A DNA stretch of 64,000 nt from an uncultured Chloroflexia bacterium (GCA_963765765.1 CAVXYC010000030.1:1-64000), one strand, 5' to 3'; numbered from the stretch's first letter, positions 31,656 through 33,673 are shown. Notes: generated by a model from the letters alone, not told the origin. Translations and numbers: made by a program.

Positions 31656-32822
31656 ATGGATTTCAGCCTCTCGTCCGAACAGAAGATGATTCTCCAGACC
31701 GTTCGCGAGTTCGTCCGACGCGAGCTCATGCCGCTGGAGGCGGAAGTCCAGAAGGCCGACGCCGAAGGACGCGTCTTCATGGACCGAGCGCGGCTGCAGG
31801 CGCTTCAAGCGCGGGCCAGGACCGCTGGTCTCTGGGGCCTGATGACGCCCGAAGAGTATGGCGGAGCCGACGTGGGGCGCTTGATGACCGCGCTCATCGC
31901 CATGGAGACGGCGCATGCACTGGTGCCCTTTCAGTATGGCGGCAGCGCGGACAACATTCTCTTCGCCGGGAATGACGAGCAAAAGGAGCGTTACCTTCTA
32001 CCCGTGATCGCCGGCGAGCGCCTGAGCTGCTTCGCCCTGACGGAGCCGGGTGGTGGCTCGGATGCCACGAATATTCAGACGATGGCCGTGCGGGATGGCT
32101 CGGGCTGGGTCATCAACGGGCGGAAGATCTTCATCTCCAACGGCAGCGATGCCGACTTCGCGATCATATTCGCGGTGACGGACAAGGAGAAGCGACATCG
32201 CGGCGGCATCACCGCGTTTCTCGTGGATCGAGAGATGGGCTGGTCCAGCACGCCCATGAAATTCATGAGTGCGTGGGCCGCGGCGGAGATTGAGCTTGTC
32301 GACGTCCGCGTCCCGGATTCGGCGGTGCTGGGCGAAGTAGGCGGCGGATTCGATCTGGCGATGCGCTGGATCGGAAACGGTCGCATCCAGATACCGGCGC
32401 GGTCCGTTGGCACAGCCCAGCGCTTGCTGGAGATGGGCATCGACTTCGCCCGTCAGCGGGTTGCCTTCGGGTCGCCGATCGCTGATTACCAGGCGATCCA
32501 GTGGATGATCGCTGACAGCGCCATCGAGATCGAACAGGTCAAATGGGTGACGCTCCACACCGCCTGGAAGGCCGACACAGGCGCCGACGTGCGGCATGAC
32601 CAGTCGATTGCCAAGATCAGCGGCGCTCAGATGGTCTGGCGGGTGGTCGATCGTGTCATGCAGATCCACGGGGGCACAGGATACACGCGCGATCTGCCGA
32701 TTGAGCGGATCATGCGCGAAGTGCGGGTGCTGCGCATCTTCGAAGGCACGGATGAGATCCAGAAGCGCACCATCGCCCGGAACCTCATTCGCGGCCACGT
32801 CCCTGTGAATTCGTGGGATTGA
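31656..32822 (+). CDS. Acyl-CoA dehydrogenase
   Basis: FALTEPGGGSDA, NGRKIFISN, QIHGGTG, RIFEGTDEIQ. Confidence 0.93.
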   Translation: MDFSLSSEQKMILQTVREFVRRELMPLEAEVQKADAEGRVFMDRARLQALQARARTAGLWGLMTPEEYGGADVGRLMTALIAMETAHALVPFQYGGSADNILFAGNDEQKERYLLPVIAGERLSCFALTEPGGGSDATNIQTMAVRDGSGWVINGRKIFISNGSDADFAIIFAVTDKEKRHRGGITAFLVDREMGWSSTPMKFMSAWAAAEIELVDVRVPDSAVLGEVGGGFDLAMRWIGNGRIQIPARSVGTAQRLLEMGIDFARQRVAFGSPIADYQAIQWMIADSAIEIEQVKWVTLHTAWKADTGADVRHDQSIAKISGAQMVWRVVDRVMQIHGGTGYTRDLPIERIMREVRVLRIFEGTDEIQKRTIARNLIRGHVPVNSWD

Positions 32823-33256
32823 TATCCGCAGATTTACGCAGATGAACACAGATTATTTAGGGGTTAGAACGAGGCGTTTGTACTGGAGGCTTGGCGTGCC
32901 GAAGTTGAGAAGAACGGCGCGCTCAAGACGTGTGATTCGAAGATAATTAATCACCTGGGCAGCCTCGATGCCGGTAAGCGCCTGGAGCGCCTTGCACTCC
33001 ACCAGGACCATCCCGAAGCACACGAAGTCTGCGCGATAGTAGCTCGGAAGCACGCGGTCTTTGTAATGGACCGGCAGCAGCTTCTCTCGCTCGAATGGAA
33101 TTGCCTGTGCGGCAAACTCGACGCTCAGCGCATCCTGGTAAACGGCCTCAAGAAAACCGTGACCCAGCTCACGATGCACTTCCATCGCGGCGCCGATCAC
33201 AGCGTAAGTCTCTGAATCCCTCTCTATCTGTGTAAATCTGCGTGAATCTGCGGATA
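32823..33256. mobile_element. Candidate mini-element: GxxExxY gene bounded by 31-bp inverted repeats
   Basis: Left TATCCGCAGATTTACGCAGATGAACACAGAT (32823-32853); right (reverse complement of 33226-33256) TATCCGCAGATTCACGCAGATTTACACAGAT; 28/31 identical. Confidence 0.75.
32853..33227 (-). CDS. GxxExxY protein (PD-(D/E)XK-like nuclease fold); start uncertain (ATA 33227 or GTG 33200)
   Basis: ETYAVIGAAMEVHRELGHGFLEAVYQDAL, YRADFVC, VECKA, AQVINYL, LLNFG. Confidence 0.9.
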   Translation of the reverse strand: MERDSETYAVIGAAMEVHRELGHGFLEAVYQDALSVEFAAQAIPFEREKLLPVHYKDRVLPSYYRADFVCFGMVLVECKALQALTGIEAAQVINYLRITRLERAVLLNFGTPSLQYKRLVLTPK

Positions 33257-33258
33257 AC

Positions 33259-33673
33259 TCAGCGTGGGCGAAAGCGAGGGCAGCGTCATGGAGTCGGTCA
33301 CGTCATCGTAGACGACTTGCACCGGGATGCCCACGCGGACGGCTTCGGGCGTGGGGTCCACGTCGACCAGATTGGTCAGCATGCGGGCCCCCTCCTCGAG
33401 CTCGATAAGCGCGACGACATAGGGGACCTCGGCGCCAAAGGCCGGATTGGGATGTCGATGTGGGATGGTGAACGCGTGCACCACGCCACGACCTGAGACG
33501 GGCATCCAGACGAGCTCCTCGGACATGCAGCTCGGACACAAAGACCGCGGGTAGAAGATGTACTGCCCGCAGCCGCCACACCGCTGGATCTGCATGGCGT
33601 GCGCCTTGACGCTCTCCCAGAACGGGGCGGTGACCGGGTCTGGAGTGGGGAGCGGCTTCGTATAGTCGGCCAT
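33259..33673 (-). CDS. Zn-ribbon/OB-fold (DUF35) protein (+1 frameshift near 33279)
   Basis: CGGC..CPSC, IELEEGARMLTNLV; corrected end TLPRFRPR* at 33259. Confidence 0.87.

Follow-up and report, generated by a model that had tools for sequence, protein, structure and literature searches.

A 434-bp GxxExxY gene cassette bounded by phased inverted repeats in an uncultured Chloroflexia bacterium, and its relatives in many phyla

The 434-bp element and its neighbours

The window analysed here is a stretch of 64,000 nucleotides from an uncultured Chloroflexia bacterium (GCA_963765765.1 CAVXYC010000030.1:1-64000). Its subject is a 434-bp element at positions 32823-33256, in which a single small gene of the GxxExxY family lies on the minus strand between two inverted arms. 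The element is a member of a widespread family of inverted-repeat-bounded cassettes that is found across many phyla. Each arm is 31 nt long, 28 of the 31 positions (90%) are complementary, and 372 nt lie between the two. Repeat search thus reproduced the 31-nt arms of three ~10-bp units described in the initial annotation. The left arm, 3' of the gene (32823-32853), begins with a terminal TATC, which is followed by CRCAGAT cores at 32827, 32837 and 32847. The right arm, 5' of the gene (33226-33256), holds three inverted cores and closes with a terminal GATA. The spacing of the cores is 10 nt. A pattern of two such cores has four matches in the 64-kb window, all of them within the arms, against an expectation of 0.13, and none of 100 shuffles reaches four.

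The GxxExxY gene (32853-33200, minus strand) is the only sizeable open reading frame (ORF) within the 434 bp. Its stop codon TAA (32855-32853) shares the inner base of the left arm, an overlap that had been noticed from the start. At the other end, the ATA at 33227 had been taken for the first in-frame codon. This is wrong, since the reading frame continues without a stop across the entire right arm and past it (149 aa). Within that open frame, no in-frame ATG, GTG or TTG precedes the GTG at 33200, from which the protein has 115 aa, and no in-frame ATG lies upstream of the conserved domain. The arm and the domain are separated by a short leader (33201-33225, minus strand), which is out of frame with the arm-encoded leader of close homologues. 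In a contig from a related strain, X1, TT is added after 33222 and the arm leader is in frame; the window thus carries a 2-base offset between leader and domain. The two closest database proteins (90-92% identical) are called from an internal Met. Without an ATG and with its arm leader out of frame, the window's copy of the gene may be weakened. Another contig, X3, matches the element up to 33257 and continues into unrelated DNA.

The identity of the gene as GxxExxY and PD-(D/E)XK-like, proposed in the initial annotation, is borne out by profile matches, catalytic residues and a fold model. The protein scores 138.1 bits against TIGR04256 (cut-off 35) and 127.7 bits against PF13366 (PDDEXK_3; cut-off 22), and these are the only profiles that it matches. 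No HUH Y1 transposase of the REP-associated tyrosine transposase (RAYT) kind and no DDE, serine or tyrosine recombinase is present in the element. The translation contains GFLEAVY, a GxxExxY motif. In an alignment of 39 family members, D62, E72 and N103 are invariant, and E22 (in GxxExxY), K74, Q86 and Y90 nearly so. The glutamate in helix 1, the aspartate and the ExK make up the PD-(D/E)XK catalytic set. An AlphaFold model was obtained with a pLDDT of 95.9 and a pTM of 0.88. Its structural neighbours are all restriction-endonuclease-like: Cas4 SSO0001 (4ic1, Foldseek E 5e-5), 3ijm (Z 8.2), AF1548 (Z 8.0), the nuclease domain of BpuSI (Z 7.9), Hjc (Z 6.3) and the catalytic domain of I-Bth0305I (Z 5.5). 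These likenesses confirm the fold and point to no functional subfamily. By sequence, no chain in the PDB matched at E up to 1. The family is very large, with more than 8000 GxxExxY/PF13366 candidates in the search. In PMC3424549, the one classification paper found that covers PF13366/PDDEXK_3, its function is listed as unknown and multiple transfers are noted.

Both flanking genes end at the element. The left arm begins on the base right after the TGA stop of an acyl-CoA dehydrogenase gene (32820-32822, plus strand), just as initially annotated. On the right, a gene for a DUF35/ChsH2 OB-fold protein runs towards the element on the minus strand. In four relatives of the same family, this protein ends in TLP(R/K)F(R/K)P(R/A) followed by a stop, at 137 aa. 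The ORF in the window carries an additional base at 33277, six codons ahead of the TGA at 33259-33261, and this stop is out of frame in the assembly. As assembled, the ORF reads into the right arm and stops at the TAG at 33224-33226, giving 149 aa, 12 codons late. The X1 contig (roughly 94% alike, with 22 other letters and 3 gaps over ~430 bases) extends from the gene across the right arm into DUF35, carries the element in the same position as the window and lacks base 33277. Because the relatives end there and the related strain lacks the extra base, the ancestral DUF35 stop is TGA 33259-33261. The corrected stop 2 nt from the right arm is therefore supported by four relatives as well as by X1; the extra base is either a strain difference or an assembly error. 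The GxxExxY gene lies downstream of the DUF35 operon on the same strand. Synteny within the family (DUF35 and a thiolase-like gene) breaks off at the left boundary of the element, 32823, and the gene downstream of DUF35 differs in each of four same-family genomes examined.

The arm-gene-arm layout in homologues

The 80 best relatives of the protein (56-79% identity) were collected from contigs representing one genome per species, and flanks are complete for 78. The hosts belong to Verrucomicrobiota, Chloroflexota, Planctomycetota, Acidobacteriota, Treponema, Bacteroidota, Nitrospinota, Gammaproteobacteria and other groups, and the genomic contexts of the genes are unrelated across these phyla. 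A flanking inverted repeat with a score of at least 14 is found at 63 of the 78 loci, and at only 1 of 284 control positions that lie 600-900 bp away. Both arms hold two or more phased CRCAGAT cores at 66/78 loci, and exactly three plus three at 53/78. The layout recurs in an independent set of metagenome contigs, where the best identity is 76% and the 90-92% identical proteins P0002 and P0003 are not among the matches: 49 of 67 loci have at least two plus two cores and 39 have three plus three, compared with 0/83 displaced controls. The flank comparison suggested by the initial annotation thus revealed the same kind of arms in both genomes and metagenomes.

The arms of these homologues are uniform in some features and variable in others. 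Successive cores are most often 9 nt apart (153 intervals), followed by 10 nt (99) and 8 nt (2). The one-helical-turn phasing read from the window is consequently not a general property of the family. The terminus before the first core is conserved (A in 54/64, T in 55/64 and C in 64/64) and is of the ATCC type. The elements measure 419-646 bp, with a median of 465 bp (n=66), so that the 434 bp of the window fall within the range. Spacers are identical between the two arms of an element in only 23 of 98 cases, with a mean identity of 0.53 versus 0.44 for arms of different elements. Since the spacers are poorly conserved between arms, selection acts on the cores, their number and the terminus rather than on perfect stem pairing. 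The idea that the terminus incorporates a stop codon (T-R-A before TCC) was also considered and dropped, as position -4 is occupied by A, T, C or G with no preference for stop codons.

Among the 66 arrayed loci, the start is an ATG within a CAGATG core in 23, as anticipated for intact copies in the initial annotation, whereas 33 have instead an ATG just inside the arm, between it and the domain. In three loci the only ATG is upstream of the arm, and seven have none. Stop codons are located ahead of the 3' arm in 20 loci, within it in 23 and past it in 23. Because start and stop codons fall within or beyond the arms, the N- and C-terminal tails of database homologues are arm-derived. Neighbouring genes also come close to the arms. 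When flanking frames facing the element are taken from stop to stop, a rough measure (n=115), 30 end inside an arm, 18 within 0-5 nt of it and 20 within 6-20 nt. The abutment of gene ends seen in the window is typical for the family.

Closer to the window, 9 of the 41 closest genomes carry any GxxExxY gene, with other word types among them. Periodic inverted arms flank the gene in seven of the nine, namely in the window's own genome (G000), G001, G004, G013, G016, G017 and, in the form of degenerate arrays, G010. No periodic inverted arms were found at the GxxExxY genes of G024 and G040.

Gene-less copies, word dialects and inheritance

The window's own genome comprises 6.49 Mb in 33 contigs (91.8% complete) and contains the GxxExxY gene in a single copy. 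The two-core pattern has 26 matches genome-wide, 15 exact and 11 with one mismatch, and the reversed control pattern has none. Besides the element of the window, six further loci carry the same arms (seven in all), in agreement with the expectation that repeat-only copies exist. Four are gene-less inverted pairs spanning about 100-172 bp overall (C2:35412-35511, C2:180437-180608, C19:33982-34105 and C19:228388-228512), one is a degenerate pair (C14, near 348380-348480), and one consists of a single arm with a stump of the gene's 5' end (C18, about 110782-110885; 74% identity over about 155 bases). In our reading, the copies at C2:35412 and C14 retain the short leader found after the 5' arm of the window's element. 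Because the leader is retained, these two derive from gene-bearing units by internal deletion. CRCAGAT arrays are absent from G001, a genome of the same genus, which also has no hairpin at the single flank that could be aligned.

Two other observations concern the same contigs. At C18:113651-113884, ~3 kb from the arm and stump on C18, there is a match to Y1 (HUH) transposases that contains an in-frame TGA. A different palindromic repeat of ~110 bp is located at C19:32523-32638 (L008:38-153); it has more than 20 further matches in G000 at 80-93% identity, often on both strands.

At least five array hits are found in only five of the 41 closest genomes (G000, G010, G016, G033 and G035). G016 contains at least 10 homologous gene-less palindromes of ~100 bp. 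All share the spacers of their arms, a motif in the loop and an inverted repeat further out, and so constitute an amplified family. The only gene copy in this genome is truncated after ~50 codons. G033 carries compact hairpins of three plus three cores with loops of 9-28 nt; no gene was found in this assembly, which has a completeness of 80%.

More distant genes are associated with other words. Paralogues with 27-49% identity have other heptamers, likewise of the form CRCRRAN, in their flanks. G001, of the same genus as the window, has the word CACAGAG, and G004 has a CGCAGAG-type word. Among 20 further genes sampled from the phylum, 12 are accompanied by CACGAAG, CACGAAT, CACGAAA, CACRGAA, CGCGAAT or CRCAGAG words, and the other eight are without clear arms. 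We compared the words with a FastTree phylogeny of 82 proteins, composed of the window, 64 arrayed loci without in-frame stops, 12 paralogues and five relatives. The 10 word labels need 10 changes on this tree (the minimum is 9), whereas shuffled labels need 14.9 on average and none of 200 shuffles is as low. Of the CRCAGAT rows, 66/67 fall on one side of a branch with a support of 86.

Arrays and genes also tend to occur in the same genomes. We tallied 401 genomes of the phylum, calling array-rich those with at least eight hits, a threshold set after seeing the data, and accepting gene matches at E up to 1e-5. The unpublished genomes G006, G251, G199, G293 and G075 contribute only rows in this tally and in that of the 41 genomes. 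Array-rich genomes number 34, with up to 269 hits (G096), and a GxxExxY match is present in 28 of them versus 49 of the 367 others. Kin are not independent in this comparison, as families f23, f27 and f41 give most of the positives. Array counts can vary widely among close relatives, from 1 to 159 within genus g52.

In genus g75, the cassette is inherited vertically. It occupies one orthologous site, and a 3-kb query matches five other species at 88-96%. Four species can be aligned across the element. The dN/dS of the gene is 0.07-0.12, with dS up to 0.51, and the left arm (33 nt) is identical in all four, whereas the intergenic DNA next to it differs among them; in one species, a unit of the right arm has been lost. 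The protein and the arms are thus maintained over speciation times in this genus. Gene conversion among the many related arrays could contribute to the identity of the arms. No clean insertion sites were found in g75, the orthologous intergenic regions of G096 and G132 being scrambled by indels of repeat modules.

The intergenic DNA of G096 (L132-L155), a member of g75, is a mosaic of CACGAAG, CACGAAT, CACAGAT, CGCAGAG, CATAGAA, GGATGAA and CCAATAGC type arrays. CACAGAT arrays are often paired here with inverted CGCAGAG arrays, and species of g75 with gene identities of about 90-96% differ by entire modules in their orthologous spacers. Orthologues of the gene L145:1594-1932 are found in two species of this genus, at L179 (G173:C5) and L180 (G247:C1). 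They have an in-frame TGA and TAG, respectively, at the same GxxExxY Trp codon, and their mutual dN/dS is 0.066.

Explanations for the cassettes and comparison with known systems

We favour, at roughly even probability, the explanation that the element is a compact selfish cassette, equipped with a nuclease that recognises the arms around its gene, and that it leaves behind gene-less derivatives. The arms would be arrays of binding sites for the encoded nuclease, which would act at or near the ends of the element and thereby promote the spread or maintenance of the gene-bearing cassette. The same nuclease would serve gene-less derivatives (arm, short loop, arm) in trans. The basis of this explanation is the anatomy of the element, its recurrence, the constraint on its parts and the association of genes with arrays; from these we infer binding to the heptamers, cutting there and movement of the cassette as DNA. 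The initial annotation had proposed a non-classical mobile or intervening element. A discrete, transposase-free, inverted-repeat-bounded unit at gene ends is what was found, and mobility belongs to what we infer.

Several results speak against the selfish cassette. Some concern movement itself. In 62 elements examined at six boundary offsets (2-7), direct repeats of 2-8 nt, as expected of a target duplication, did not exceed chance. The empty-site arrangement proposed initially, in which the acyl-CoA dehydrogenase gene lies next to DUF35, did not appear in any of 40 relatives, and neither of two gene-less sites of G000 has a clean orthologous empty site. Excision joints were absent from four runs, all of which consisted of contigs. 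PD-(D/E)XK enzymes are hydrolases, and none is known to transpose alone. Others concern the copies and their genomes. The loops of the gene-less pairs of G000 are mutually unrelated, so these are not copies of one spreading hairpin; the gene of the window lacks an ATG, as do those of 7/66 homologous loci; and the g75 cassette is fixed at one site in four species, in a genus where many arrays are paired with an unlike word. Nor do genes and arrays always coincide. Six array-rich genomes (G033, G158, G182, G224, G242 and G378; completeness 80-97%) have no GxxExxY match, and six others (G230, G307, G063, G319, G046 and G091) have a gene of at least 50% identity with only 0-7 array hits. Furthermore, co-inheritance of a gene with its arms would by itself make the word type follow the protein tree, so that this pattern is no proof of recognition. 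Finally, the boxed layout is not restricted to nucleases. G000 encodes four proteins of PF05635, the family of the 23S rRNA intervening sequence (IVS) protein, and three of these genes, on contigs C2, C7 and C19, are boxed by inverted arrays in which other heptamers recur every ~7 nt (L188:1430-1940, L189:1370-1859 and L190:1341-1775; arms of 27 nt, 21 nt and 18 nt lying 449, 448 and 399 nt apart, respectively).

The PF05635 genes weigh for an alternative in which the active module consists of the arms, with the nuclease as cargo. The arrays would then be moved or made by a host process or another enzyme, and the GxxExxY and PF05635 genes would have another role, for example a benefit to the host. 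Array-rich genomes without the gene fit this explanation, as do the many word families that fill the intergenic DNA of g75 and pair with unlike arrays, and the purifying selection on a gene at a fixed site. A further point in its favour is the presence of three Y1 (HUH) transposase matches in G000, all of them outside the element. However, the word type tracks the nuclease tree, genomes with a given gene clade are enriched in arrays of the matching word, and no candidate trans-acting enzyme is linked to the arms. We consider this alternative unlikely.

A rather improbable alternative is a homing parasite, in which the nuclease would cleave gene-less hairpins bearing its words, the gene would be copied in from an occupied copy during repair through the homology of the arms, and the separated arms would protect occupied sites. 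The position of the gene exactly between the arms, with both ends overlapping them, would follow from such a cycle, and so would the missing target duplication, the existence of gene-less hairpins with the same arms and the fixed, symmetric architecture of three plus three cores. Genes are nevertheless few where hairpins are many, as in G096 with two gene matches versus 269 array hits. The amplified hairpin of G016 is gene-less, and some gene-less copies are deletion derivatives and not virgin sites.

The PF05635 cassettes, which have the same layout, also weigh for an element that works at the RNA level in the manner of an IVS. Its arms would pair in read-through transcripts, and the stem would be cut, for example by RNase III, or would hide the start codon, so that the heptamers would matter only as a stem. 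A terminal stem closing the whole gene is indeed predicted (minimum free energy -182.4 kcal/mol, z -6.0). No promoter was found in a scan of 32600-33500, the gene is co-oriented with the DUF35 operon that precedes it, and the neighbours of homologues are co-stranded with the gene in 51 of 76 cases upstream and 51 of 72 downstream, a modest bias. Pairing of the arms in RNA had been suggested by the initial annotation as well; the stem is predicted, as for any inverted repeat, but the spacers are barely kept complementary. Moreover, a stem leaves the phased invariant cores and their fixed count of three unexplained. No Rfam match to the arms exists at E up to 1, the only hit being a chance snoRNA-like match outside the element. 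One RNA run has zero cover of the element and is uninformative on processing. This explanation has a low probability.

It is highly improbable that the arrays are operators, that is, regulatory sites flanking an immobile resident gene, with gene-less copies as relics, because conserved cores and a fixed, orthologous locus in g75 are outweighed by unrelated contexts across many phyla at 56-79% protein identity, by patchy presence among relatives with other word types even within the genus, and by the amplified hairpin family of G016.

Returning to the selfish cassette, the features described above would link the GxxExxY/PF13366 family to a defined DNA partner, the phased heptamer arrays that follow its clades, and so provide a biochemical hypothesis that can be tested. 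A possible origin is also offered for abundant short periodic intergenic repeats. If the nuclease mobilises the arms, it would represent a new enzyme class in bacterial transposition or homing, and the lower size limit of autonomous elements would have to be revised downwards. It is conceivable, albeit doubtful, that the cassettes make up a new class of autonomous mobile element, whose sole protein is a nuclease of ~115-130 aa reading three phased heptamers per end, with CRCRRAN dialects specific to clades, no target duplication and REPIN-like hairpin populations. If this were true, no self-encoding mobile DNA known in bacteria would be smaller than these units of about 430-470 bp, and they would account for a large part of the short periodic repeats between genes in Chloroflexota, Verrucomicrobiota and other phyla.

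The cassette family is apparently undescribed. No description of a unit of GxxExxY gene plus arms was found in the literature searched, subscription journals being outside the search; in one paper, the GxxExxY domain is mentioned only as a neighbour of a reverse transcriptase. Partial likenesses to several known systems are nevertheless apparent.

One likeness is to PD-(D/E)XK homing endonucleases such as I-Bth0305I and I-Ssp6803I. Here too, a small nuclease of the same superfamily lies inside what is possibly its own symmetric target. Unlike these enzymes, the cassette is found neither in an intron nor in a conserved host gene and is flanked by repeat arrays, and the likeness is at the level of the fold only.

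The IVSs of 23S rRNA that contain an S23p/PF05635 ORF resemble the element in having a small ORF within terminal inverted repeats able to form a long stem, and the PF05635 genes of G000 are themselves boxed in inverted heptamer arrays. In contrast, the element lies between acyl-CoA dehydrogenase and DUF35 genes and not in rRNA, its ORF belongs to PF13366, and its arms consist of phased heptamers, between which the spacers have not been kept complementary.

Insertion sequences (ISs) and miniature inverted-repeat transposable elements share with the cassette terminal inverted repeats that enclose its own gene, shorter gene-less derivatives that keep the ends, some of them by internal deletion, and, in G016, one amplified gene-less family. 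They differ in that the cassette has no DDE, HUH, serine or tyrosine recombinase and no target-site duplication, and its ends are built of phased repeats. To our knowledge, 434 bp is also below the size of any autonomous IS.

Finally, the cassette can be compared with REPINs and RAYTs, that is, REP doublets and the tyrosine transposases associated with them (PMC3116915 and PMC3337134). Both systems comprise a single small gene flanked by inverted copies of a dispersed palindromic repeat of the same genome, gene-less inverted doublets between genes, and repeats that outnumber the gene; vertical inheritance under purifying selection is likewise common to both, in the case of the cassette within one genus (g75). 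The cassette differs in encoding a PD-(D/E)XK nuclease and not an HUH Y1 transposase, in having arms of three phased heptamers and not one REP hairpin, and in its patchy distribution, which crosses phyla and is combined with a low copy number in the window's own genome (seven loci).

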